This document shows positions 6,038 to 49,422 of a stretch of DNA of 64,000 bases, piece by piece. Position 1 is the first letter of the stretch, and every line of letters begins with the position of its first letter. The stretch comes from Bacteroidales bacterium (GTDB lineage Bacteria; Bacteroidota; Bacteroidia; Bacteroidales; VadinHA17). The stretch spans positions 550 through 64,549 of the forward strand of contig JALONT010000007.1 of assembly GCA_025454795.1 (NCBI GenBank), read 5' to 3'. The notes beneath the pieces were generated by a model, which did no database searches, was not told the DNA's origin, and saw nothing but the letters and a program-made list of their open reading frames with translations. The translations under genes and the position numbers were made by a program.

Positions 6038-8950
6038 ATGACTTATTTTCTGGAAAGAATTGCCAGGCTTCTTTTTGATGAGTGTGGAAATGACCTCAGG
6101 AAACATTGTCTTGTATTTCCTAACAGAAGGGCCGGATTGTATTTTCTAAAATATCTTGCATCTGAGATATCAAAACCTGTCTGGTCACCTGCAATAATGA
6201 CGATAAATGACCTCTTCAGGTCACTATCAAAACTTCATCCGGCGGAAAATGAAATCCTTCTTTTCGAACTCTTTAAAGTGTACAAATCAATAAAAAAATC
6301 AGGAGAGAACTTCGATGATTTTTATTTCTGGGGAGATATGCTCCTGAACGACTTTGACGATGTCGATAAATACCTTGCCGATGTTCAGAAACTGTTCAGA
6401 AATGTACTCGATCTTAAAAAGATAGATGAACAGTTTGGCGGACTTACCCCGGAACAAGCTGAGATTGTCAAAAGGTTCTGGATCAATTTTAATCCTGCAA
6501 AGTCTTCAGATGAAAAGGCTAAGTTTATCGGCATATGGGAGATTCTTTACGATCTCTATAACAGGTTCAGAGAAAAGCTGAAAGACAAAAACCTTGCGTA
6601 TGAAGGAATGATCTTCAGAGACGTTATTGAGAATCATGATTGGAATGATCTTACAGGTTTAAAATGGGAAATGATCCATTTCATCGGGTTTAACGCACTG
6701 AATGCATGTGAGAGAGAAATCATGCTGATCCTGAAAAAAGAGGGGAAGGCACGATTCTACTGGGATTATGATAATTCATATCTGGATAAAGGCAGACTCA
6801 ACTCTGCAGGATTTTTCCTGAAAGACAATATCCGGACATTCGGTAACGATATGCCTGAAGACTGGGAATACGATACGATTCTTTCAAAACCCGGGATCGA
6901 AGTTAAACGCCGTATAATAGACACATCTTCAGATATTTCACAGGTGAAGCTGATCCCTGATCTTATTGGTCAGCTGCCTGGCCTGACCCCGGAAAATTCA
7001 CATCATACAGCAGTTATTCTTGCCGATGAGAAACTTTTGCTTCCACTTCTGACAAGTCTGCCCGGAAATGTTAAAGACATTAATATCACAATGGGTTTTC
7101 CGCTTAAACAGACATCCGTCTATTTGCTGGTAAAAAATCTTCTTGAAATGCAGCGAAATGCACGGGTCAGAGATGATGTTGTTATATTCAGCCGCGACGA
7201 TGTAATAAGAATACTAAAAGACAGCCTGATTACCGGTCTCCTGGATGAGCAGGATGATCTGATTAAAAAGGAGATCTCTGAAAAATGTTCAGTATGGATT
7301 GACTCCGGCAGGTTTGTGAAGTCGGAAAAATTATCCGGAATATTCTGGAAACCATCAACACCTGCTCTGATGTCCGGCTATCTGAAATCGGTACTGATGA
7401 TGGTCGTGTCTGACGGAGCTGAAGATGGCTCGGCACAGGCTGGAAGTATTCTGCCGGTCAGTATAAGAAATGAATTTGTATACAGGTCAATCCTTTCTGT
7501 GAACAGACTTGATTCAATCTCCGGAGATCCGGATGTAAGTTTCAATATTAATACATGGGCTTCAATCCTTGACAGACTATTAATGGTGCAGTCAGTGCCA
7601 TTTTCAGGGGAACCTCTCTCGGGAATTCAAATCATGGGTATTCTTGAAACAAGAACACTCGATTTTAAAAACCTCATATTCCTTTCGGTAAATGAAGGGA
7701 TACTCCCTGCAGTTTCGGCTCCATCATCCTTTATCCCATTTAGTCTTCGCGATGCCTTCGGACTTCCTTCGATAAATCACCAGGAATCCATCTATGCATA
7801 CCATTTCTACCGGTTGCTCCACAAAGCTGAAAACATAACTTTCATTTATAACTCAAATCCCGATAGCAAGGGAGGTGGTGAAATGAGCAGGTTTCTGCAA
7901 CAGATGAAATATGAGCAGCTTAAAAAACCTGAATTCCTGAATCTGAGTTTTGAAATAAAGAATCCCCGTACAGTAAGTACAACAGTTGAAAGGACAGGAG
8001 AACATACTCTTCGACTGAATTCGCGGTTTAGAGATAATGTTCTGGTGACTGATAAAGCAAAGCAGAAAAGACTATCTCCATCAGCAATAAACACCTGGCT
8101 GACCTGCAGGATGATGTTTTATTACCGCTATGTGAATGATCTGAGGGAGCCTGATAATAAATTTAAGGAGATTGATCCGGCGAAACTAGGCACCCTTCTC
8201 CATGAGGTTATGAAAAATATCTGGGCTCCCTACACAGGCACGGAAGTTGATGATTCCGTAATAGATAATATAATTTCAGATAAGCTGACTCTTTCGCAAT
8301 TGATCACGAATGCAATCAATGAGAAATTTGAAAGGGTTGATGATTCCGCTATTGCTGCCAACGAAAAGATAGTAAGAAATGTGCTGCTTAAGTACATTTA
8401 CAGGGTCATGGAGTTTGACAGAAAAGCTGCACCATTTAATATTATAGGTTTGGAGAGACCGGTTGTTTTCAGCATGATCCTGGAAAATGATGGGATGCAG
8501 ACTGAATTGAAAATAGGAGGGGTGACCGACCGCATTGATATTAGTGATGGCATTACCAGGATCGTGGACTATAAAACAGGAAAAACAGCAGATTCAATAA
8601 AATCAGTTAATGCACTTTTTGAGAATAACAGGAAAAAAGATGCAGACGCCTGGCTTCAGACATTACTGTATTGCGAGGGATATCTTTATGAAGGTCACGG
8701 AGTAAAACTTACTCCATCTGTTTATAAGATCAAAAGGGTGCCGGGGGAAAATTTCACTGATAAACTCATTATTAAGCCAGGTAAAAAGGAAGAGGTGTTT
8801 GTGGATGATTATTTGACAATAAGAGGGGAGTTCCTTAATGGATTGCAGAATGTTGTGAAAGACATTTTCAGCAATGATGAACCATTTGTGATGATTCCAG
8901 GAAACTGGGAATGCAGATATTGTCCCTACAGAATATTATGTATGAGATAG
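6038..8950 (+). CDS. AddB-like PD-(D/E)XK nuclease with C-terminal Fe-S cysteine cluster
   Basis: C-terminal nuclease motif DRIDISDG..IVDYKTGK. Cys in LTCRMMFYYRY plus CRYCPYRILC, the AddB-type 4-Cys arrangement. Confidence 0.75.
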   Translation: MTYFLERIARLLFDECGNDLRKHCLVFPNRRAGLYFLKYLASEISKPVWSPAIMTINDLFRSLSKLHPAENEILLFELFKVYKSIKKSGENFDDFYFWGDMLLNDFDDVDKYLADVQKLFRNVLDLKKIDEQFGGLTPEQAEIVKRFWINFNPAKSSDEKAKFIGIWEILYDLYNRFREKLKDKNLAYEGMIFRDVIENHDWNDLTGLKWEMIHFIGFNALNACEREIMLILKKEGKARFYWDYDNSYLDKGRLNSAGFFLKDNIRTFGNDMPEDWEYDTILSKPGIEVKRRIIDTSSDISQVKLIPDLIGQLPGLTPENSHHTAVILADEKLLLPLLTSLPGNVKDINITMGFPLKQTSVYLLVKNLLEMQRNARVRDDVVIFSRDDVIRILKDSLITGLLDEQDDLIKKEISEKCSVWIDSGRFVKSEKLSGIFWKPSTPALMSGYLKSVLMMVVSDGAEDGSAQAGSILPVSIRNEFVYRSILSVNRLDSISGDPDVSFNINTWASILDRLLMVQSVPFSGEPLSGIQIMGILETRTLDFKNLIFLSVNEGILPAVSAPSSFIPFSLRDAFGLPSINHQESIYAYHFYRLLHKAENITFIYNSNPDSKGGGEMSRFLQQMKYEQLKKPEFLNLSFEIKNPRTVSTTVERTGEHTLRLNSRFRDNVLVTDKAKQKRLSPSAINTWLTCRMMFYYRYVNDLREPDNKFKEIDPAKLGTLLHEVMKNIWAPYTGTEVDDSVIDNIISDKLTLSQLITNAINEKFERVDDSAIAANEKIVRNVLLKYIYRVMEFDRKAAPFNIIGLERPVVFSMILENDGMQTELKIGGVTDRIDISDGITRIVDYKTGKTADSIKSVNALFENNRKKDADAWLQTLLYCEGYLYEGHGVKLTPSVYKIKRVPGENFTDKLIIKPGKKEEVFVDDYLTIRGEFLNGLQNVVKDIFSNDEPFVMIPGNWECRYCPYRILCMR

Positions 8951-9000
8951 CCTCAGTTAGACCTACTAATCATTTCTTTTATTAATTTAGTGTTTAATTC

Positions 9001-9006
9001 AGGAGG
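9001..9006 (+). promoter_or_regulatory. Shine-Dalgarno-like AGGAGG, 6-nt spacer to ATG 9013
   Basis: Read directly: aggagggacaggATG. Confidence 0.5.
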
Positions 9007-9012
9007 GACAGG

Positions 9013-10761
9013 ATGAAAACTGGGTACAAGAATTACCGGATTGAGATTAATAATATCAAATTCGTTGCTGATGATGGCAGGACATGCCCAAGAACGGCTA
9101 TTGTGACCTTTTTTGATCATGAAGGTAAGGAGTATGATACTGAATTGTTCGGTGCCGTTGAGCTAAACTGGATCTATGACCAGATAAAGGAAGGCAAAGA
9201 GATATCACTGGATAATTTTTATGTTTCTGAATTCTCCCTTTCAGCCTACAGGAGGCATTACAATATTGAAAAGAAGGAGCTTATACCGGTTAAAGGTATT
9301 TCTGCAAAAAATGCATTCTTCGAATCAAAATTGTGTACGGATTTTTCATATGCCTCATTCGCAGACGGAGAAGTAAGCTTTGAAGGAACACATTTTGCTA
9401 AAGGGAAAGTAGCCTTTACCGGTTCTGTTTTCGGTATCGGAAATGTGAACTTTTCAAACACTTTTTTCAGGGATGGAAATATTGAATTTGACGGAACCAC
9501 CTTTGGCGAAGGAGATTTTTTGTTCAAAAATGCCCTGGTCAATAACGGCATTAAAGATTTTCAGGATATTCAATTCGGAAACGGGGAAGTGAGTTTTGCA
9601 AATACAGAGTTCAACTCCGGTGAGCTTCTTTTCATTAATACGCGTTTCAACAGCGGTAAATTCAATTTTAAAGTAACCCGGATAGCAGGAGGGAAAGTGG
9701 ATTTTCACTATTCGGTATTTGGTAACTGCGAGATCACATTTGAAAGGACTGAATTTGGAAACAGCAGGGTCGACTTCAGGACTGTGGATTTCGGTTCGGG
9801 AAGAATTAATTTCAACCGTTCTGTCTTTGGCAATGGAGAGGTAAACTTTGAGGGTGCCTCATGCAAAGCAGGCAAAATCCAGTTCAAGAAAGCAGAAATG
9901 GGTTCCGGTCCCAAAAACTTCAATCTCATGGAGATGGAAGATACAGAAATCAGTTTTGAAAGAACCGAATTTGGCGACGGTGATGTAAGTTTTTATGAAT
10001 CAATGTTTCACACAATATCTCTTAAGTCATGTCACTTCAAACATTATATTGATCTCAGGATTTCTGCAGCCCAATTGCTTGATCTTTCTGATACCATAGT
10101 CCGTGATATTGTCGACCTTGAACCTTATGACTTTCCTGTCGGAATAAAAGTGCTTGATATGTCAGGAATGAGGCTTATCGGGAAAATTTATATCGACTGG
10201 AAAAATAATAAATGCCTTTCCCTTATCAGTCATCAGGAAAATACAAATCTCCGGCAGAAGGCAGAACAATTCAGGATTCTGAAGGAGAATTTCAGCAGCA
10301 TAGGTAAGTATAATGATGAAGATGAGGCTTACGTTATGTTTAAACGTTATGAGGCTAAATCATGGATCACAGAGCAGGAGGAGAAAGGTGGCATTACAAA
10401 AATCGCCAGTTACATACCGCATGGCTTCAAGTGGCTGGTATTTGATAAGATTGGTCTGTATGCAACTTCACCAGGCAGGGTACTATTGAGTGTTCTCGTT
10501 TTCTGGTTTTGTTTCGGATTTATTTTTTTTATTACCGAAATATCAGGGCTTGGCAGGACTGCATCAGCTGTTGGAAATCCAGATGGGCTTTCCATTCTGT
10601 TTCAATCATATTATCACAGTGCAATTACATTTTTTACTATTGGCTACGGGGATGTGTATCCGATGGGCCTAAGCCGGATATTCTCAGGCTTGGAAGGATT
10701 TATGGGAGTATTTATGATGTCTTATTTTACAGTGGCTTTCGTCAGGAAAGTACTGAGATAG
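9013..10761 (+). CDS. Pentapeptide-repeat (beta-helix) protein fused to a 2-TM potassium-channel pore
   Basis: About 250 aa of approximately 20-residue F.(G/N)G.V.F..T.F repeats, then two TM helices flanking the selectivity filter FFTIGYGDVYP. Canonical AGGAGG lies 6 nt before the ATG. Confidence 0.75.
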   Translation: MKTGYKNYRIEINNIKFVADDGRTCPRTAIVTFFDHEGKEYDTELFGAVELNWIYDQIKEGKEISLDNFYVSEFSLSAYRRHYNIEKKELIPVKGISAKNAFFESKLCTDFSYASFADGEVSFEGTHFAKGKVAFTGSVFGIGNVNFSNTFFRDGNIEFDGTTFGEGDFLFKNALVNNGIKDFQDIQFGNGEVSFANTEFNSGELLFINTRFNSGKFNFKVTRIAGGKVDFHYSVFGNCEITFERTEFGNSRVDFRTVDFGSGRINFNRSVFGNGEVNFEGASCKAGKIQFKKAEMGSGPKNFNLMEMEDTEISFERTEFGDGDVSFYESMFHTISLKSCHFKHYIDLRISAAQLLDLSDTIVRDIVDLEPYDFPVGIKVLDMSGMRLIGKIYIDWKNNKCLSLISHQENTNLRQKAEQFRILKENFSSIGKYNDEDEAYVMFKRYEAKSWITEQEEKGGITKIASYIPHGFKWLVFDKIGLYATSPGRVLLSVLVFWFCFGFIFFITEISGLGRTASAVGNPDGLSILFQSYYHSAITFFTIGYGDVYPMGLSRIFSGLEGFMGVFMMSYFTVAFVRKVLR

Positions 10762-10762
10762 C

Positions 10763-11251
10763 TCATTTCTCCATTTCCTGTTGCAAGGCAGCCATCTTTA
10801 TAGCTGTGACAGCTGCTTCATCACCTTTGTTTCCATGTATGCCACCGGCTCTCTCAGCAGCCTGCTCATATGTGTTGGTTGTAAGAACTCCGAAGATAAA
10901 CGGCAGGTTATAATCGAGATTAAGCTGTGTTATACCATATGTTACTCCCTGACAGATATATTTAAAATGAGGAGTTTCTCCCTGTATCACACAACCCAGG
11001 CAGATCACTGCATCAAGGTCATCGTATTCTGCAAGGATCTGGGCCCCCATTGTAAGCTCAAAACTTCCGGGAACATGTTTTATTACAATATTCTTATCAG
11101 CGGCTCCATGTTTTTTTAATGTATTAACAGCACCGTCAAGGAGAGACCAGGTGACTTCTTTGTTCCAGTCAGAAACAACAATTCCAAACCGCATATTTCC
11201 GGCATCCGGAATACTATCCGGATCATAGGCAGATAAATTGGCTGTGGCCAT
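10763..11251 (-). CDS. ribH: 6,7-dimethyl-8-ribityllumazine synthase
   Basis: [15 protein letters not shown].., [28 protein letters not shown]: a typical RibH. Confidence 0.9.
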
Positions 11252-11252
11252 T

Positions 11253-11939
11253 CTACTTTATGAGAATCTTTACTCTGGCTAAGTATTTTTCAATTGACAT
11301 TCCTTCTGTGCTTTCAGGATACTCAGTCTGGATCCGTTCGTAGATCTTAAGGACTTCAGAATAATTGCCGCTAAGTTCATGTATTTCACCGGCTTTCATC
11401 AGGAATAACGGGGTGTTGAATGAGTTATCTGCATAATCAGCTGCTTCAATATATTTTGCAACTCCCTTTTCAGTATCTCCAAGTTCAACGTAAGCGTCCC
11501 CGATAGCTCCGATTGCAAGAGATCCGAGGACTTTATCTTTCTTTGAGTATTTTTCAAGCATATCTATTGCATCCTGGTACTTACCAAGATGAAGAAAGCA
11601 AATACCTGCACTGTAACGTGCCAGGTTACCGGAGGCTGTGAATTTGTAGTCACTTGCTATATCGAGGAAACCAAGGTAGTTTCCGTCACCATTCAGGGCA
11701 AGCTTAAGAGAATCCATTTCCAGGTATCTTTCAGCCTGGTACATCTGCGACTGTGCCTCATTGTTTCTCTTGCTCAGGTATATCTTTCCAAGCCAGAACA
11801 ATCCGACAAGGACAACAATAACAACTAGTCCAATAAGTAATGCTCTGTAATTCTGCTCCAGAAACTGTTCTGTTTTTGTCAGTGTCTCCTCAACGTTCTT
11901 CAGGCTCTGCGGATTCTCATCCTTAGTTTTCTTTGCCAT
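11253..11939 (-). CDS. Membrane-anchored TPR-like protein (YfgM-like), co-transcribed with ribH
   Basis: Single TM ([17 protein letters not shown]) followed by a helical-repeat region. A 1-nt gap separates it from ribH. Confidence 0.6.
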
Positions 11940-41606: not shown

Positions 41607-42743
41607 TTAGTTCCAGACCCCCTTAATTTCATATCCGCACTTGTTGCATTTCCCGGCTTCGAGATTATTTAATGTGATCCGGTAACCCTGCCTTGCAATT
41701 ACTGTTATGCCACATGACGGACACCTGGTATCAGAGGCTTCGTTACCCGGGACATTCCCGATGTAAACATATTTTAAACCTTCACTGTAAGCGACTTTTG
41801 CAGCATTTCTGAGTATCTCAACAGGTGTCGGAGGCAGTTGTTCAAGCTTATAAAGAGGGTGGAACCTGCTGAAATGGAGAGGTGTATCTTTAAAGCCGTT
41901 TTCACTGAGCCATTTACACATCGCGGCTATCTCATCAATATTATCCGACCATTTTGGAATAACAAGATTGGTTATCTCAAGCCATACACCTGAATTCAGA
42001 TAAATTTTCAGAGAATCAAGGACAGGTTGAAGCTTACCGCCGGTGAGCCTCAGGTATGTACTGTCATTGAATGATTTCAGATCAATATTTGCAGCATCAA
42101 TCACACTGCAAAGTTTTTTTAAAGGATCGGCATTAATGTATCCGTTTGATTTAACAATGTTCCTGATGCCGGTTCTCTTTGCCAGTACTGCTGTCTCATA
42201 GGTATACTCATAAAAGGTGACAGGTTCGGAATATGTATATGCAATAGAGCGGCAGCTGTTAGTAATAGCTTCATTTACCACTTTATCCGGCATCAGATCG
42301 TAATTCCTTGTCTTGTCGGGAGAAGTTTGTGATATTGCCCAGTTCTGACAGTTAAGACATACCATATTGCATCCGGCAGTTGCAATGGAATAGGCTCTGG
42401 ATCCTGGTAAAAAGTGATATAAAGGCTTCTTTTCGATAGGATCAATATTAACGGAACAGGGATTGCCAAAAGCCATAGTATAGAGCTTTGAATCCTTTAC
42501 CCTCCTATTATTGCATTTGCTTGTCTCTCCCTCCTTAAGAACACATTCGTTGGGACAAATCCTGCACATGATCCCCCTTGGTGTCTCTTCCTGGAACATT
42601 GCAACTCTTCTCAGAGTGGATTGCTCCCCGGGGACAATTCTATTGATAACCGCAGTTCCCGGAAGACTCGCAATTCCTGCTGAAATGGCCAGGCATTTCT
42701 TAATGAAGATTCTTTTGCTGTTATCAAAATCCATGTTTGTCAT
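41607..42743 (-). CDS. amrS: AmmeMemoRadiSam system radical SAM enzyme with Tat-like N-terminal signal
   Basis: GCNMVCLNCQNW (CxxxCxxC), an N-terminal Cys cluster CRICPNEC...C, and a C-terminal CPSC...CNKC. The N-terminus is SKRIFIKK followed by the hydrophobic stretch CLAISAGIASLPG. Confidence 0.85.
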   Translation of the reverse strand: MTNMDFDNSKRIFIKKCLAISAGIASLPGTAVINRIVPGEQSTLRRVAMFQEETPRGIMCRICPNECVLKEGETSKCNNRRVKDSKLYTMAFGNPCSVNIDPIEKKPLYHFLPGSRAYSIATAGCNMVCLNCQNWAISQTSPDKTRNYDLMPDKVVNEAITNSCRSIAYTYSEPVTFYEYTYETAVLAKRTGIRNIVKSNGYINADPLKKLCSVIDAANIDLKSFNDSTYLRLTGGKLQPVLDSLKIYLNSGVWLEITNLVIPKWSDNIDEIAAMCKWLSENGFKDTPLHFSRFHPLYKLEQLPPTPVEILRNAAKVAYSEGLKYVYIGNVPGNEASDTRCPSCGITVIARQGYRITLNNLEAGKCNKCGYEIKGVWN

Positions 42744-42760
42744 TCTGAATAAAATTAAAA

Positions 42761-45187
42761 CTAATGTTTGTTCCTGTTTGTTCCAAAAAGAATGCCGGTT
42801 AAAATTAAAACAGCAAGTAAAAATATGGAAACTCTGATGCCAAGAAGAGGGACTGTAACGCTTGTGACAAGAATGAATCCCATGGCTGATCCGGCAAGGT
42901 CGGCACTATAAGTCATCCCGGGTGAAGTTCCGTTATTTTCAGGTTCAGTAAGTACCCTGAAAAGATGTCCGGTCATAAATGAGGGTATCAGAACAGAAAT
43001 TATAATCAATAGAATAATTGTAACGACTCCCTTTAGGTCAGTCATATAATTATAACTTATGGATATGACTGCATAAAAGATTAGAATGAAGAATGCCTTT
43101 AACTTAAGAGAAATTGAATTCAGGAATTTCTGATTTAATCCTGCTCCGGCAGCAAGACCTGCCATAAGGGCGGCAAGAATTATACCGACAAACTGGTACA
43201 TATTACCAACAGTCAGCTGAACTGTGAGCAAGATTATGAACTCAAATCCGGCAAGCGCTGAAGCGCTGAAATACATAAGAACATCTCTCCTGCGAACAGA
43301 CAATACAGGTACAGCGAAGGCCAGAATAATAATTATCAGGGCAGGTATCTTCTCACCGAGGTTTTTGCTGAAATCATAATTCTGAAAATATAGACATGCT
43401 ACCGGGAATGCCAATCTGTTGACCCTGACATTTGGATCAAGAATATAGGCTACTTCCGCTGATTTTTTCTCAATGAGATCATCGGCGAGAAAATCGGAAC
43501 TTACATAAATATTCTTTATGCCTTTCTCATCAGCCAGCTTGCAGAAGGAAACGGACAGTTCCTTGTCGGATGCTAAAAAGTATAGTTTATTTCCGGTGAC
43601 CGGTTTCACGAATCTGAATACCTCAGCCAGGCTGTTGTATACAGATGAATATAAATAAACAGCCTCTTTGTTCAGGTAGTTTTCCCCCGGACCCGGTGAA
43701 CACATAAATATTCCTCCGTTGGAAAGCAGTTTCTTTATATCATTAAAAAATTCTGTTGTATAAAATCTGTTCAGAGAGAGCGTTGAGGGGGGAGGAAGAA
43801 GAAGGATAACCGCATCCGCGTGATCCTTTTTATTCCTGACATAGCTGAAAGCATCTTTGTTTTCAATTATAAGACTAGTGGATTCCAGAGCTTCCTTTGA
43901 TACAGGGAGTCTTGCAAGTACCGGATCCCTTTCAATAAACGTAATCTTTTTTACGGGGTATTTAAGTATTTCAGGCAGATGAGATTCAAGAGATCCTGAG
44001 ATAAGGACAATACTCCCGATATTGTTTCTCTGAAGCAAAGCATAGTGAATATCTTCTTCTCTTTCAATCGCATCGTCATTATATCCTATTAACCTTTGGT
44101 TGTAATAAATACTCTGTTCGCCTGAATATTCACCTCTGGTAATATTACCGTAAGGAGTGTCAGTTGTCTCGATAACTTTAATCCCGGGTAGGAGCAGCTG
44201 TCTGAAAATCCTGTCGGGACCTGACAGGATAATGATGGATATTATGGCTGCAAATGAACATTTTACAATAAGTTTTGATCTGCGGTTTTTTACAAAGAAG
44301 GTCAGTATAGAAAATGCAATAGTCAGTGAGGTGACAATTAAAAGGAGAAGGTATGTGTCTAGCAACCCTGCAGTAAGCACTGAAACAAGAATCCCGGCAA
44401 TAATGCCTCCGGTTGTCTCTATTGAGAATGATTTCCCTGGAATAAATCCGTTTTTTTCTCCGGCAGAGGTTATCACTTTTACAAAGGCAAATCCTGATAT
44501 AAGGCAGAATGGTACAAGTATCAGAAATGTGATGATTGTAGTGGACAGGAAGGATGGTATCTCTCCGGTTTTGAGAAACAGCCTTGATATAATTATAAGC
44601 AACATCAATGAAATAGCCGGGCTTAATGAAAAGATCATGTTGATCTTCGGGATATCGTTTAGTGGAGATCTGGCTGCCAGAGCTGCTCCTCCTGCTGAAG
44701 CAATAAGCCAGGAACCAAGAAAGAGCCCTGTTATCAGTTCATATCCTCCTGAAATATTCATTATCTCCCTCATCAGCAATATCTGGACCGATATACTGGT
44801 AAACCCCAGGACAAACAGATTGGAGATTATTACTGATGAATCAAATCCTGCGGATTCGGCTGGTTTTGTAAGGGTCTCTGTTTTTGAAAATATTTTTCCA
44901 AAATAGGATAGATGCCAGATAAAATGAAATATCCCCGTTATAGCAAGCCCTGCACCTGCTTCAACATGCCATTTAAGTATGTATTTTACTATTGGAATAT
45001 TCCATTTGAAATTTATCTGGAGCGCCATCAGTACTCCTGCGGTGGCAGTGAACAGGAATAAGATTGCAAGCGCTGAGTTCCAGAGTTTTTTGTGAAATGC
45101 CTGGGAGAAGAATCCCATACGGTAAAAAGAGAAACTGAGAATATATAACAGAGAGACAGTTATGATTGTCCCTATGACATGATACAT
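42761..45187 (-). CDS. 808-aa polytopic membrane protein with a central degenerate spermidine-synthase-like domain
   Basis: Many TM helices lie on both sides of a soluble Rossmann-like domain (VLISGSLES.., FIERDPVL, DAVILLLPPPST, TTEFF..IKKLLSNGGIF). The N-terminal His-rich 2-TM segment reads WHVEAGAGLAITGIFHFIWH. Confidence 0.7.
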   Translation of the reverse strand: MYHVIGTIITVSLLYILSFSFYRMGFFSQAFHKKLWNSALAILFLFTATAGVLMALQINFKWNIPIVKYILKWHVEAGAGLAITGIFHFIWHLSYFGKIFSKTETLTKPAESAGFDSSVIISNLFVLGFTSISVQILLMREIMNISGGYELITGLFLGSWLIASAGGAALAARSPLNDIPKINMIFSLSPAISLMLLIIISRLFLKTGEIPSFLSTTIITFLILVPFCLISGFAFVKVITSAGEKNGFIPGKSFSIETTGGIIAGILVSVLTAGLLDTYLLLLIVTSLTIAFSILTFFVKNRRSKLIVKCSFAAIISIIILSGPDRIFRQLLLPGIKVIETTDTPYGNITRGEYSGEQSIYYNQRLIGYNDDAIEREEDIHYALLQRNNIGSIVLISGSLESHLPEILKYPVKKITFIERDPVLARLPVSKEALESTSLIIENKDAFSYVRNKKDHADAVILLLPPPSTLSLNRFYTTEFFNDIKKLLSNGGIFMCSPGPGENYLNKEAVYLYSSVYNSLAEVFRFVKPVTGNKLYFLASDKELSVSFCKLADEKGIKNIYVSSDFLADDLIEKKSAEVAYILDPNVRVNRLAFPVACLYFQNYDFSKNLGEKIPALIIIILAFAVPVLSVRRRDVLMYFSASALAGFEFIILLTVQLTVGNMYQFVGIILAALMAGLAAGAGLNQKFLNSISLKLKAFFILIFYAVISISYNYMTDLKGVVTIILLIIISVLIPSFMTGHLFRVLTEPENNGTSPGMTYSADLAGSAMGFILVTSVTVPLLGIRVSIFLLAVLILTGILFGTNRNKH

Positions 45188-45189
45188 AG

Positions 45190-46698
45190 TTATTTGATAT
45201 TTTCATTAATTACCATTCCTTCATATATAAATATTTCAGCATCTTTCCATCCGTCCCATCCGATTCCTGCTTTATCCCTGGCAGTATAACCAAGAAATTG
45301 TTCTACTGTCCATCCATTTTCCGTGGCAACCTGTGGAAGCATCGTCCCTGATCTGAAATCTTTCTTAATGTATATGCCATGTTTCCCCAATAATATCTCA
45401 TTGATATTAATGATCTTTTTCATCGGTCCAAGTACCGTAATCTCAAAATCAAGTTTGCTGAATTCTTCCCTGGTAAGTGATGGGAAGCGGGGATCTTCAA
45501 AAGCTGAAGAGAGAGCAGATGCTTGTACTACTTCAAAAAGCGGATCAGATGAGATAAACCTGCCTATACAACCTCTCAGACTATTATTGATTTTGAGTGT
45601 CACGAATACTCCAAGTTGTCTTTTAAGTGCTTCAGGAATCTTTTTGTCATCAATAATATATTTTTTATTCTCAAATAACATACTCCTTATACTGTTTTTT
45701 GCAATTGAAAACAGCATCTCTTTCTCTTCTTTGCTGAAAGAGAATTCTTCAGAGGATTTCTGTTCATTCGTTGAAACGTTCTTCTTATCAATTAATGCAA
45801 TAGCATGATATCCGACTACTTCATCTTTCCCTCCGTATTGAGAGTCTCCCGAATTACAATAATCTATCCTTTTAAATTCCAGGTTATCATCTCCTTCAGC
45901 CAGATATAGAAGGAGAAGACCTGATGTCCAGCCACACATGCTGGTAGCAAGTCCCGGTATATTTTCCCCGGAGTTTTTCTTAAGCGTGCCGAGGAAAACT
46001 GAAGGATCTCCGGAAACCAGTCCTTCAGCTGTAAGATTATCAGTTTCTAAAGCATCCTTATATGGTGGATAATGTGAGAAATCACTGCTGATTACAAAAA
46101 GATTATCAGGAGTAAACCAGGGTTTCAGGGCTTCTGCTATAGTCCTTATCGTTGATATATTATCTGTCCCTATTATGACAGGAATAATCTTTGGAACACT
46201 GTTGTAGTAGAGCTGGATCAGGGGAATCTGTACTTCAATGCTATGCTCCTGTGAATGAGCAGTGGAAGGGAAGTTGAATACTTTGTTTTCAGTTTTCAGC
46301 CTGGTAGCTAATTCCTTGTTTACCAGGGCTCTTCCAAGTGGAGTAATAAAATCACCTGTATTATAAACTGAAGCTCCGTCAAATGCCATTATATGACTGG
46401 ATCCGATGATGAAAATATTATTGTACACTGCGCTCCGCGGAGTCGATGAAAATGCAGCAGCTGCGGTTTTTCCTGAGAATACATATCCTGCATGAGGAGA
46501 GATAATTGCCCTGACTTTCCATGACCCGGGCGATTTTTTACATTCTGAAAAGAGTCTGGAGATATCCTTCAGGAGAGTTTCTTTATCTGCGACATAAAAT
46601 CGGCCTGCTGCAACAGGCTGTCTGTCAGCCGGTTTATTCTGTGGATGAAGTTCCATGACACTGATAATTGATATCAATACTGTAATTAAAGTCCGCAT
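45190..46698 (-). CDS. AmmeMemoRadiSam system protein B/A fusion (Memo-like + AMMECR1-like) with N-terminal signal/anchor
   Basis: Memo motifs AAGRFY, ISPHAGYVFSG and SSDFSHY. The AMMECR1 motif LRGCIGRF lies in the C-terminal half. Hydrophobic N-terminus MRTLITVLISIISVM. Confidence 0.85.
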   Translation of the reverse strand: MRTLITVLISIISVMELHPQNKPADRQPVAAGRFYVADKETLLKDISRLFSECKKSPGSWKVRAIISPHAGYVFSGKTAAAAFSSTPRSAVYNNIFIIGSSHIMAFDGASVYNTGDFITPLGRALVNKELATRLKTENKVFNFPSTAHSQEHSIEVQIPLIQLYYNSVPKIIPVIIGTDNISTIRTIAEALKPWFTPDNLFVISSDFSHYPPYKDALETDNLTAEGLVSGDPSVFLGTLKKNSGENIPGLATSMCGWTSGLLLLYLAEGDDNLEFKRIDYCNSGDSQYGGKDEVVGYHAIALIDKKNVSTNEQKSSEEFSFSKEEKEMLFSIAKNSIRSMLFENKKYIIDDKKIPEALKRQLGVFVTLKINNSLRGCIGRFISSDPLFEVVQASALSSAFEDPRFPSLTREEFSKLDFEITVLGPMKKIININEILLGKHGIYIKKDFRSGTMLPQVATENGWTVEQFLGYTARDKAGIGWDGWKDAEIFIYEGMVINENIK

Positions 46699-46710: not shown

Positions 46711-46739
46711 AAAAGACCTAATAAAGTTAGGTCAAAAAA
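46711..46739 (-). terminator. Weak intrinsic terminator-like hairpin between the DUF1987 gene and the amr operon
   Basis: GACCTAA-TAAAG-TTAGGTC, a 7-bp stem followed by UUUU on the minus strand. Confidence 0.35.
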
Positions 46740-46780: not shown

Positions 46781-47236
46781 CTAGATCAGAACCATAGATT
46801 CCTTGAGGATCTTTCCGTTATCATCCGTACCATAGATTTTTATTCCAAGGTTTATGGTGGTAATGCCGATCATATCTATAATCGGACTCAGGTTATCTTT
46901 AAGATCATCTTCCTCCATATTTTCGAACTCTTCAATTTCAAAATAGAGATGGATCATCAACGTGGCTTCATCTTTCTTTATTCCGCAGAGTACCTTTATA
47001 ATTTTTGCAATCCAGATTGTTGAAGCAGTATTAAAATACTCAAGATTAAGTCTGAGATTCGTGGTTTGCCGCGGATTAGCTGAATACAGGGTGACCCATT
47101 TAAGGATGTTCTCGTACAACTTGGCTGCATTTTCAGGGATTGATCTTCCTGACAAAATAAGTTCTCCTGTAATATGGTTCAGATCGATCTGTGGTGTTTT
47201 ACTGGTCGGTTCGATATATAAACTTTTGATTTCCAC
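46781..47236 (-). CDS. DUF1987 / SiaC-family regulatory phosphoprotein-like protein
   Basis: EPTSKTPQIDLN...GELILSGRSIPENAAKLYE.IL.W... and LNLEYFNTAST match the DUF1987 pattern. Confidence 0.75.
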   Translation of the reverse strand: MEIKSLYIEPTSKTPQIDLNHITGELILSGRSIPENAAKLYENILKWVTLYSANPRQTTNLRLNLEYFNTASTIWIAKIIKVLCGIKKDEATLMIHLYFEIEEFENMEEDDLKDNLSPIIDMIGITTINLGIKIYGTDDNGKILKESMVLI

Positions 47237-49271: not shown

Positions 49272-49274
49272 AAA

Positions 49275-49422
49275 GTCGGAAGTCGGAAGTCGGAAGTCAG
49301 AAGTTGTTCTGTTGCCTCCGACTTCAGTCTTCAGACTTCGGTCTTTGGTCTTTGGTCTTTGGTCTTTAGTCTTTGGTCTTTGGTCTTTGGTCTTTAGTCT
49401 TTGGTCTTTGGTCTTCGGTCTT
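49275..49422. repeat. Heptanucleotide tandem array with imperfect palindrome: 4 x GTC(G/A)GAA, 11-nt spacer, then 15 x (C/T)(C/A/G)G(A/T)CTT
   Basis: Units were counted directly. The left arm is 49275-49303 and the right array is 49318-49422 (mostly TGGTCTT). The reverse complement of the left arm matches 49315-49343 at 21/29 positions. Confidence 0.9.

Follow-up and report, generated by a model that had tools for sequence, protein, structure and literature searches.

Organization of the amr locus

We analysed a 64,000-nucleotide stretch of contig JALONT010000007.1 (hereafter the window) from a Bacteroidales metagenome-assembled genome. The subject of this report is a minus-strand trio of genes at positions 41607-46698, which encodes, in this order, a fusion of AmrB and AmrA (amrBA), an 808-amino-acid (aa) membrane protein and the radical S-adenosylmethionine (SAM) enzyme AmrS (amrS). 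The genes are separated by spacers of 2 nt (45188-45189) and 17 nt (42744-42760). amrBA is located ~2.4 kb upstream of amrS on the same strand, and the membrane gene is the only gene in between. AmrB, AmrA and AmrS constitute AmmeMemoRadiSam, a system known from comparative genomics; the human proteins MEMO1 and AMMECR1 are homologous to two of its components. The results below suggest that the locus probably encodes a four-part, envelope-located variant of this system, with the membrane protein as its dedicated partner. The features of the operon are as follows.

45190..46698, minus strand: amrBA, fusion of AmrB (Memo-like) and AmrA (AMMECR1-like), 502 aa (open reading frame (ORF); Pfam, TIGR04336, TIGR04335)
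46639..46698, minus strand: predicted N-terminal secretory (Sec)-type signal peptide or signal anchor of AmrB-AmrA, MRTLITVLISIISVMELHPQ (hydropathy, orthologue conservation)
45802..46617, minus strand: Memo / AmrB domain, residues 28-299 (PF01875, E 2.5e-48)
45217..45708, minus strand: AMMECR1 / AmrA domain, residues 331-494 (PF01871, E 4.9e-47)
42761..45187, minus strand: membrane partner, 808 aa, with 17 predicted transmembrane (TM) helices and a spermidine-synthase-fold domain predicted to face the periplasm (AlphaFold2; locus scans)
44900..45187, minus strand: accessory N-terminal 3-helix domain (N-domain), residues 1-96, with H74-x13-H88 on helix 3 (alignment, AlphaFold2)
44222..44839, minus strand: first membrane half, residues 117-322, a 6-helix repeat plus helix 7 (AlphaFold2, hhalign)
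43352..44218, minus strand: spermidine-synthase-fold domain, residues 324-612, predicted periplasmic (Foldseek, profile against PDB, positive-inside rule)
42782..43348, minus strand: second membrane half, residues 614-802, helix 8 plus a second 6-helix repeat (AlphaFold2, positive-inside rule, hhalign)
41607..42743, minus strand: amrS, AmmeMemoRadiSam radical SAM enzyme, 378 aa (TIGR04337; CX3CX2C motif)
42645..42743, minus strand: putative twin-arginine translocation (Tat)-type signal of AmrS, Lys-Arg variant, MTNMDFDNSKRIFIKKCLAISAGIASLPGTAVI (motif conservation, hydropathy)
41613..42578, minus strand: AmrS catalytic core, residues 56-377 (TIGR04337 match)

The 502-aa protein matched TIGR04336 with 211.7 bits (cut-off 26) and TIGR04335 with 153.4 bits (cut-off 99). 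The 378-aa protein matched TIGR04337 with 348.3 bits (cut-off 220) over residues 56-377, and its CNMVCLNC sequence corresponds to the CX3CX2C motif. AmrB, AmrA and AmrS are genuine members of their families. The preliminary description of this DNA had proposed these three ORFs, their spacers and the AmrB-AmrA, membrane protein and AmrS identities; all of them were confirmed by the coordinates and by family scores above the cut-offs, and every peptide that it quoted was present (PHAGYVFSG, LRGCIGRF, CNMVCLNCQNW, SKRIFIKK, CLAISAGIASLPG, MRTLITVLISIISVM, VLISGSLES, LLLPPPS and WHVEAGAGLAITGIFHFIWH). As the TIGR04337 match starts at residue 56, approximately 50 N-terminal residues of AmrS lie outside the family model. 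The next-best models for AmrS were glycyl-radical-enzyme activases (the YjjW activase, PflA and CutD). The 808-aa protein matched PF01564 (Spermine_synth) over residues 380-506 only, with 38.5 bits (cut-off 22.9).

As expected of AmmeMemoRadiSam (TIGR04335 AmrA, TIGR04336 AmrB, TIGR04337 AmrS), all three components were present on the same strand and scored above the cut-offs. Whereas the canonical trio has no N-terminal extensions, here AmrS carries a putative Tat-type signal, AmrB-AmrA a putative Sec-type signal, and a conserved protein with 17 predicted helices is embedded between them. In the literature, we found the term AmmeMemoRadiSam in annotation mentions only and no biochemical characterisation of the system. 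Burroughs and co-workers reportedly analysed Memo gene contexts in 2019, and part of the present context may already be noted there.

The NCBI call for an identical 808-aa protein (MUC93_03560) is 785 aa long and starts 23 codons downstream. The longer start is supported because most homologues are 807-808 aa long with a conserved MYH beginning. The MUC93_03560 start would remove the conserved first helix of the N-domain.

Conservation of the membrane gene beside amr genes

Two locus sets were compiled, each consisting of the best 80 of at most 600 matches; the proportions given below are thus indicative and not unbiased. For set 1, species-representative genomes were scanned with a profile of the membrane protein, and Amr homologues were placed by tblastn in the 80 loci. 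For set 2, metagenome contigs were scanned with signal-bearing AmrS (8 sequences), which again gave 80 loci. The set 1 loci revealed that amrS, usually together with amrB/amrA, adjoins the membrane gene in Bacteroidales, Prolixibacteraceae, Ignavibacteria, Aminicenantes, Omnitrophota and Pirellulales/Planctomycetales, and also in records titled Woesearchaeota, Methanosarcinales and Aenigmatarchaeota. This linkage was kept by distant homologues with identities down to 25-31% to the window protein. Gene order and strand varied: amrBA was divergent in L051, L054, L056, L061, L069 and L078, and yet another gene order was found in L053, L060, L068 and L081. Upon ORF clustering of the 44 most distant loci, only three families were found to be common, namely the membrane protein, AmrS and AmrB/A. 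Three set 1 loci with ample flanks (L055, L074 and L082) contained no Amr gene; L055 and L074 have a common divergent motif set.

The AmrS-seeded scan gave a corresponding picture. The membrane gene was located within 8 kb of 41 of the 47 signal-bearing AmrS genes with enough flank. Signal-less AmrS was rare in set 2 (L131, and L105 and L129 with a one-sided flank), and all of these loci were without the membrane gene.

The adjacency could be incidental, the 808-aa protein being an unrelated 'fused MFS/spermidine synthase' (MFS, major facilitator superfamily) polyamine protein that lies inside the amr operon of this lineage. The nearest loci share argS, ffh, ligA and secA, and synteny by descent would suffice there. 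Indeed, close relatives have the entire neighbourhood in common (argS, ffh, the SiaC-like gene, ligA and secA) and are therefore uninformative on a partnership. In contrast, the linkage extends to other phyla and archaeal-titled records in which identity is down to 25-31%, the genes are rearranged and no other neighbours are common, and it recurs when the scan is seeded with AmrS. On the basis of the two independent locus scans, membrane-seeded and AmrS-seeded, we rejected incidental synteny, which we regard as barely credible. In several bacterial phyla and in archaeal-titled records, signal-bearing AmrS and AmrB/A have a conserved partner in the 808-aa gene; its conservation beside amr genes in relatives, which had been raised as a question earlier, extended across phyla and through varied gene orders in both scans.

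One set 1 locus (L063) had the membrane gene in several broken frames (8001-10433) and an AmrS without a signal region (10598-11605). The module may be decaying at this locus, or the assembly may be in error.

Predicted export signals of AmrS and AmrB-AmrA

The region upstream of the AmrS catalytic core was open and conserved in frame among orthologues. In at least 68 of 73 set 1 orthologues, it contained a [KR]-R-x-F-[LIV] motif and, after it, an uncharged Gly-, Ala- and Ser-rich segment; the motif had R-R in 7. The window AmrS has S-K-R-I-F-I-K-K, with Lys in place of one Arg of (S/T)-R-R-x-F-L-K. S-K-R-D/E-F-L/I-K-K was found in AmrS of Bacteroidales, most other Bacteroidota and Ignavibacteria, while the canonical twin-arginine forms T-R-R-E-F-L-K-K or S-R-R-R-V-L-K-Y were found in archaeal-titled, Pirellulales and some other AmrS. 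R-R Tat-type signals were also present in most of the 80 set 2 AmrS. In Bacteroidota and Ignavibacteria, K-R was strictly kept over R-R in AmrS, though other proteins of these groups use R-R (for example, L065 1764-3077).

The hydrophobic N-terminus of AmrB was kept in 66 of 67 orthologues; its sequence varied between lineages, and its character was retained. A lipobox-like Cys was present in 11 AmrB proteins from distant lineages, such as LGGC in L073 and TIGC in L080. At L089, AmrB and AmrA are encoded by separate genes, each with its own signal.

We compared the signal cores by the hydropathy maximum over 13 residues, which was 1.60 ± 0.24 for AmrS and 2.53 ± 0.34 for AmrB (p = 2e-22); the window proteins gave 1.58 and 2.53, respectively. 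Tat signals are less hydrophobic than Sec signals, and the difference between AmrS and AmrB matches this pattern. Positive charges were located N-terminal to the hydrophobic cores, indicating an N-in, C-out orientation. The motif, hydropathy and conservation point to a conserved Tat-type signal on AmrS, with K-R in the window and R-R in distant orthologues, and to a Sec-type or lipoprotein-type signal on AmrB-AmrA. Both signals had been proposed from the window alone, and both were retained across orthologues. Start codons downstream of these signals, which would have made them artefacts, were not indicated, as the N-terminal segments are conserved in frame in orthologues.

Tat export of iron-sulfur (Fe-S) proteins is known for Rieske proteins, hydrogenase small subunits and TtrB, the last with a natural K-R signal. 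The AmrS N-terminus resembles these in its (S/T)-[KR]-R-x-F-L-K motif and weakly hydrophobic core rich in Gly, Ala and Ser, and differs in its radical SAM cargo. No exported or Tat-exported radical SAM enzyme was found in the literature.

A different N-terminus was observed in AmrS of L068 and L081, which begins with a strongly hydrophobic signal and an AxA-type cleavage site, e.g. MKKIIIIILFCLGVFLADAQA.

Overall structure of the 808-aa membrane protein

An AlphaFold2 model was calculated from 53 sequences of two clades. It showed a pLDDT (predicted local distance difference test) of 84.1, a pTM (predicted template modelling score) of 0.86 and 17 TM helices. The model is composed of the N-domain of three helices (residues 2-95), helices 1-7 (117-322), a soluble domain (324-612) and helices 8-14 (614-802). 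Residues 118-301 (helices 1-6) and 632-806 (helices 9-14) form an internal repeat (hhalign probability 95.6%, E 1.3e-8). Because the repeats are homologous and begin from the same membrane side, the body appears to be an MFS-type 6+6 module that arose by duplication. In place of the central loop, helices 7 and 8 form a hairpin, which bears the soluble domain. Both repeats have an acidic residue at an equivalent position, within S-x-E-x-x-G in the first and S-x-D-x-x-G in the second.

The distribution of positive charges was examined in 81 homologues. Over these homologues, the predicted inside loops contained a total of ~18.8 Lys and Arg residues, compared with ~2.1 in the predicted outside loops. 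This positive-inside bias predicts that the N- and C-termini of the core are cytoplasmic and that the soluble domain is periplasmic.

Neither Foldseek nor a profile search matched the membrane part to a solved structure; all of the top hits corresponded to the spermidine-synthase domain. The 808-aa protein matched no MFS model in Pfam and no solved MFS structure by Foldseek or by profile search against the PDB, and its C-terminal membrane half gave only chance-level Pfam hits.

The combination of a membrane part and a spermidine-synthase domain is also found in NF037959 'fused MFS/spermidine synthase' proteins and membrane-bound SpeE (PRK03612). NCBI names core-clade members of the present family 'fused MFS/spermidine synthase', and the NF037959 scores (cut-off 40) were 51.8 bits for P0166, 62.5 for P0177 and 37.8 for P0121. 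In contrast, the window protein scored only 18.1 bits, below the cut-off. Its spermidine-synthase fold is also placed in the middle of the protein (6+1 / 1+6 helices) and not at the C-terminus, and it has the extra 3-helix N-domain. In the literature, we found no function for fused MFS/spermidine synthase proteins, no link of amr genes to them and no link of AMMECR1 to spermidine synthase. The linkage described above would provide the first conserved functional context for these widespread proteins.

The spermidine-synthase-fold domain

Foldseek revealed that the soluble domain was similar to spermidine synthases in the PDB, including 1uir (E 1.3e-9, target TM-score 0.67) and 6bq2 (target TM-score 0.71), with target TM-scores ranging from 0.60 to 0.71 over ~270-290 residues. 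A search of PDB sequences with the family profile also identified spermidine synthases at E 1.8e-25. The modelled domain is a complete spermidine-synthase fold, with an N-terminal beta-domain and a Rossmann domain. However, a residue-level alignment showed that the GGGDGG loop is replaced by SGSLES in the window protein and that both aspartates of D-x-x-D-P are lost (L463 and P466). The retained acidic residues were E419 and D421, a pair after strand 2, and D445, at the position of the adenine-binding Asp. We take E419, D421 and D445 to be the positions of the ribose- and adenine-binding acidic residues of spermidine synthases, and the D-x-x-D-P aspartates to be catalytic. The spermidine-synthase equivalog scores of the 808-aa protein were far below cut-off (TIGR00417, 29.5 against 249.55). 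Compared with spermidine synthases (PF01564; 1uir, 1inl, 6bq2), the window protein thus has the complete fold and E419/D421/D445 in common and differs in SGSLES, in L463/P466, in its insertion between membrane helices 7 and 8, and in its predicted periplasmic side.

The motif loss was not uniform among homologues. The full motifs (L-L-I-S-G-G-V-S-G-T, V-E-L-D-P and D-L/V-P-D-P) were kept in archaeal-titled, planctomycete and ignavibacterial homologues, and intermediate states were observed in Prolixibacteraceae and Aminicenantes. Loss of the catalytic aspartates is limited to certain clades, this Bacteroidales clade included. The earlier proposal of a degenerate spermidine-synthase core therefore held for the fold and for the motif loss in the window, and degeneracy proved to be a property of particular clades and not of the family.

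In true aminopropyltransferases, the GGGDGG Asp discriminates against the SAM carboxylate. This position was Val or Ile even in the homologues with otherwise intact motifs, which suggests compatibility with binding SAM instead of decarboxylated SAM. Because both catalytic aspartates are lost and the adenosyl-binding residues are kept, ligand binding or partner docking seems more likely for the Bacteroidales fold than aminopropyl transfer.

These motifs bear on an alternative in which the membrane protein is itself the substrate enzyme. Its ancestral periplasmic domain would alkylate an amine carried by a lipid, a polyamine or a polymer of the envelope, AmrS, AmrB and AmrA would modify the product, and the dead Bacteroidales domain would hold or present the substrate. 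The archaeal-titled, planctomycete and ignavibacterial homologues with SGG-V/I-SG, V-E-L-D-P and D-L/V-P-D-P are as this alternative would have them, as is the complete aminopropyltransferase fold with its N-terminal beta-domain, and the acidic residues of the two repeats would suit a cationic ligand. However, alkyl transfer too needs extracellular SAM or decarboxylated SAM, the amr linkage persists in several clades after loss of the catalytic aspartates, and no candidate substrate gene was conserved in the examined neighbourhoods. We consider this alternative unlikely.

The N-terminal His-bearing domain

The N-domain was modelled as three helices comprising residues 2-23, 29-60 and 65-95. 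The His segment, which the preliminary description had regarded as a 2-TM segment, belongs to this 3-helix domain instead. Residues Y2, Y15, W36, N37, L40, F44, G51, H74, V75, G78 and H88 were invariant among distant members; H92 was ~90% conserved, and H32 was not universal. H74 and H88 are both on helix 3, 14 residues apart, and the haem-ligating helices of di-haem cytochromes b have similarly spaced His residues. With a single helix of this type in each chain, bis-His ligation would call for dimerisation or for a further ligand.

Similarity of this domain to cytochrome families was weak. DUF4405 (PF14358) was matched by 9 of 17 diverse N-domains, with a best E of 5.3e-5, and Ferric_reduct by 5 of 17, while the N-terminal 111 aa of the window protein itself gave only chance-level Pfam hits. 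The cytochrome-like character proposed for the N-terminus is weakly supported by the diverse N-domains (best E 5e-5), and the window's own domain has no Pfam match. In comparison with DUF4405 and other cytochrome-b-type domains, the N-domain is weakly similar to DUF4405 and Ferric_reduct and has its two invariant His residues 14 apart on one helix.

The N-domain was absent from forms of ~700-730 aa. At L022 (from 7956) and L026 (from 7983), which are 56-62% identical to the 808-aa protein, it was deleted in frame with the MYH start kept.

Small 2-helix proteins of 82-113 aa, with an invariant W, T-G and H-x13-H, were observed at five loci, three archaeal-titled (L060, L071 and L077) and two from Pirellulales (L073 and L080), at the following positions.

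L060 10076-10324: small 2-helix gene
L071 4332-4607: small 2-helix gene
L073 11395-11664: small 2-helix gene
L077 11242-11529, minus strand: small 2-helix gene
L080 10116-10457: small 2-helix gene

The gene was located between the membrane gene and amrS in four loci; L071 was too short to show amrS. Similarity of these proteins to cytochrome b561 and Sdh_cyt was weak, with E-values between 2e-4 and 7e-3.

Fusions and neighbours of AmrS relatives

AmrS relatives formed 1,339 clusters at 50% identity (E <= 1e-30). Among the 150 cluster representatives closest to the window, 89 had no N-terminal extension, ~31 had a Tat-like signal (25 with R-R, by automatic classification), 4 had another hydrophobic extension, and 15 had long N-terminal fusions. 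Approximately one-third of these representatives thus have an export signal or a fusion to a membrane or extracytosolic domain. In particular, an N-terminal DsbD_2 membrane domain was fused to AmrS in P0242, P0258 and P0269, and FMN_bind, alone or with NapH-type Fer4_5, was fused to it in P0252, P0262, P0268, P0269 and P0277. Other fusions involved CBM_11 (P0245) and a beta-propeller (P0247). Triple fusions with an N-terminal signal or anchor also exist, in the orders AmrB-AmrA-AmrS (P0244) and AmrS-AmrB-AmrA (P0249).

Meheust et al. (2021; PMC8238504) described NapH-like/FMN-binding (FMN, flavin mononucleotide) and DsbD-family (PF02683) proteins as extracytosolic electron-transfer systems, in which the FMN-binding domains are flavinylated extracytosolic modules; radical SAM, Memo and AMMECR1 are unmentioned in that report (PMC8238504). 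The likeness of the present proteins to these systems lies in the AmrS relatives fused to DsbD_2, FMN_bind and NapH-type Fer4_5, where DsbD_2 (PF13386) is tied to the DsbD family by its Pfam description only.

In the R-R clades of set 2 (L084-L163), DUF362 proteins with R-R Tat signals were encoded at 30 of the 80 loci, in most cases immediately upstream of amrS. Examples are L095 490-1497, L098 6749-7747 and L136 6919-7929, and two copies were sometimes present. A mixed cluster with a DUF6599 representative, which also included sequences of NapH-like appearance, was found in 11 loci, and DsbD_2 proteins were found in 4. None of the DUF362, DUF6599-cluster or DsbD_2 proteins was seen in the window, and genes for FMN_bind, NapH-like or DsbD proteins were absent from its operon. 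The weakly matching and dispensable N-domain is the sole candidate in the window for conducting electrons.

The glycyl-radical-enzyme activases among the family models suggest a further alternative, in which AmrS would be exported in a reduced and SAM-loaded state for a single turnover and would, in the style of these activases, leave AmrA, AmrB or the membrane protein with a stable protein radical. Such export would require no periplasmic SAM pool. The closest characterised AmrS relatives (the YjjW activase, PflA and CutD) fit this proposal, Tat carries folded proteins with bound cofactors, and the source metagenome-assembled genomes look like anaerobic lineages, judging from record titles. 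However, no glycyl-radical motif turned up in the partner proteins, where no search aimed at one was made; the proposal also leaves unexplained both the repeated electron-module fusions of AmrS relatives and the conserved transporter-like partner, and we regard it as very unlikely.

In another alternative, the system would not be exported but cytoplasmic, with the N-terminal segments acting as tethers or docking peptides at the inner membrane face and the soluble domain of the 808-aa protein located in the cytoplasm. SAM, ferredoxin or flavodoxin and Fe-S assembly are cytoplasmic, K-R could be read as a weakened Tat motif, and in the relative P0249 a helix followed by positive charges suggests a cytoplasm-facing tether; the Sec-type signals on some AmrS orthologues also seem incompatible with Fe-S export. 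In contrast, the charges N-terminal to the signal cores indicate the opposite orientation (N-in, C-out), lipobox-like Cys residues occur in AmrB of many lineages, and distant AmrS have the canonical S/T-R-R-x-F-L-K. The Lys and Arg distribution (~18.8 inside, ~2.1 outside) likewise places the soluble domain outside, and FMN_bind, CBM_11 and propeller domains occur in fusion with AmrS relatives; of these, the FMN-binding domains are extracytosolic. A cytoplasmic system is therefore distinctly unlikely in our view.

A probable envelope-located variant of the AmmeMemoRadiSam system

The evidence from starts, co-occurrence and topology favours a four-part envelope-located variant of the AmmeMemoRadiSam system, to which we assign a probability of roughly 0.62. 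According to this model, AmrS would be exported folded with its Fe-S clusters via Tat and AmrB-AmrA via Sec. The spermidine-synthase-fold domain would face the periplasm, and the three soluble modules would meet at the outer face of the cytoplasmic membrane. An envelope variant with a dedicated membrane partner had been suggested from the window alone. That suggestion is largely supported by the conserved starts, the co-occurrence and the positive-inside topology, with the qualification that the N-domain is accessory.

Several observations weigh against this model. The export signals were called from motif, hydropathy and conservation only, and the K-R of the window AmrS differs from the canonical twin arginine. 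Sec-type signals without R-R or K-R were present on AmrS of L068, L081, L097, L121 and L161, and the AmrB-AmrA-AmrS triple fusion P0244 also has a Sec-type signal; these are hard to reconcile with the model, as unfolded export of an Fe-S enzyme would be required. Five loci with Tat-type AmrS had no membrane gene within 8 kb (L089, L098, L108, L109 and L162). With regard to electrons, the DUF4405 matches of the N-domains were taken at an E-value limit of 5, and the N-domain is dispensable and hence cannot be an obligatory electron route. Homology of the small 2-helix proteins to the N-domain was rejected (hhalign probability 5.6%; a hidden Markov model of the small proteins misses the N-domain), and the two are analogous at best. 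Finally, no periplasmic source of SAM or of low-potential electrons is known.

Radical SAM enzymes are treated as strictly cytoplasmic, and they require SAM, a low-potential reductant and Fe-S assembly. If AmrS acts in the envelope, SAM and electrons must both reach the periplasm. A speculative possibility is that a small cationic compound (SAM or a substrate) reaches the periplasmic domain through the MFS-like body, and that the DUF4405-like N-domain, with H74-x13-H88, binds haem and passes electrons across the membrane to the AmrS cluster. The resulting proposal places the activity of a radical SAM enzyme outside the cytoplasm: AmrS would be exported by Tat, SAM or a cationic substrate would be delivered by the MFS-like protein with a periplasmic hand-off, and electrons would cross the membrane. 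They would pass through the DUF4405-like haem domain here and through DsbD_2, NapH-like/FMN-binding or small cytochrome-b-like modules elsewhere. We hold this extension tentatively and consider it rather doubtful.

If an extracytoplasmic radical SAM enzyme were present, it would represent previously unrecognised radical chemistry of the envelope and a route of SAM export in bacteria and possibly archaea. The finding challenges the assumed site of radical SAM chemistry and offers a way into an uncharacterised family that is conserved from bacteria to humans. An exported variant would narrow the search for the Amr substrate to envelope or membrane-associated molecules. It would also offer partners for study, namely the transporter-like protein and, elsewhere, the DUF362, DsbD_2 and NapH-like proteins.

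Flanking sequences

A 151-aa SiaC-like gene (46781-47236, minus strand) is located directly upstream of amrBA, and it had the same position in the three close Bacteroidales loci examined (PF09345 in the syntenic L001-L003). The gap between the SiaC-like gene and amrBA contains one further feature.

46715..46733, minus strand: terminator-like hairpin, 7-bp stem followed by a T-run (consensus match only)

This hairpin may mark the 5' limit of the operon. A scan of promoters and terminators did not exceed the shuffled expectation (30 against 23.6 and 8 against 6.0). The argS-ffh intergenic region contained heptanucleotide tandem arrays at 49273-49422 (AAGTCGG x4.6, GACTTCA x2.9 and CTTTGGT x12.4), through which the mechanically called ffh ORF, with its TTG start, acquires a spurious, repeat-derived N-terminus (LWSLVFG...).

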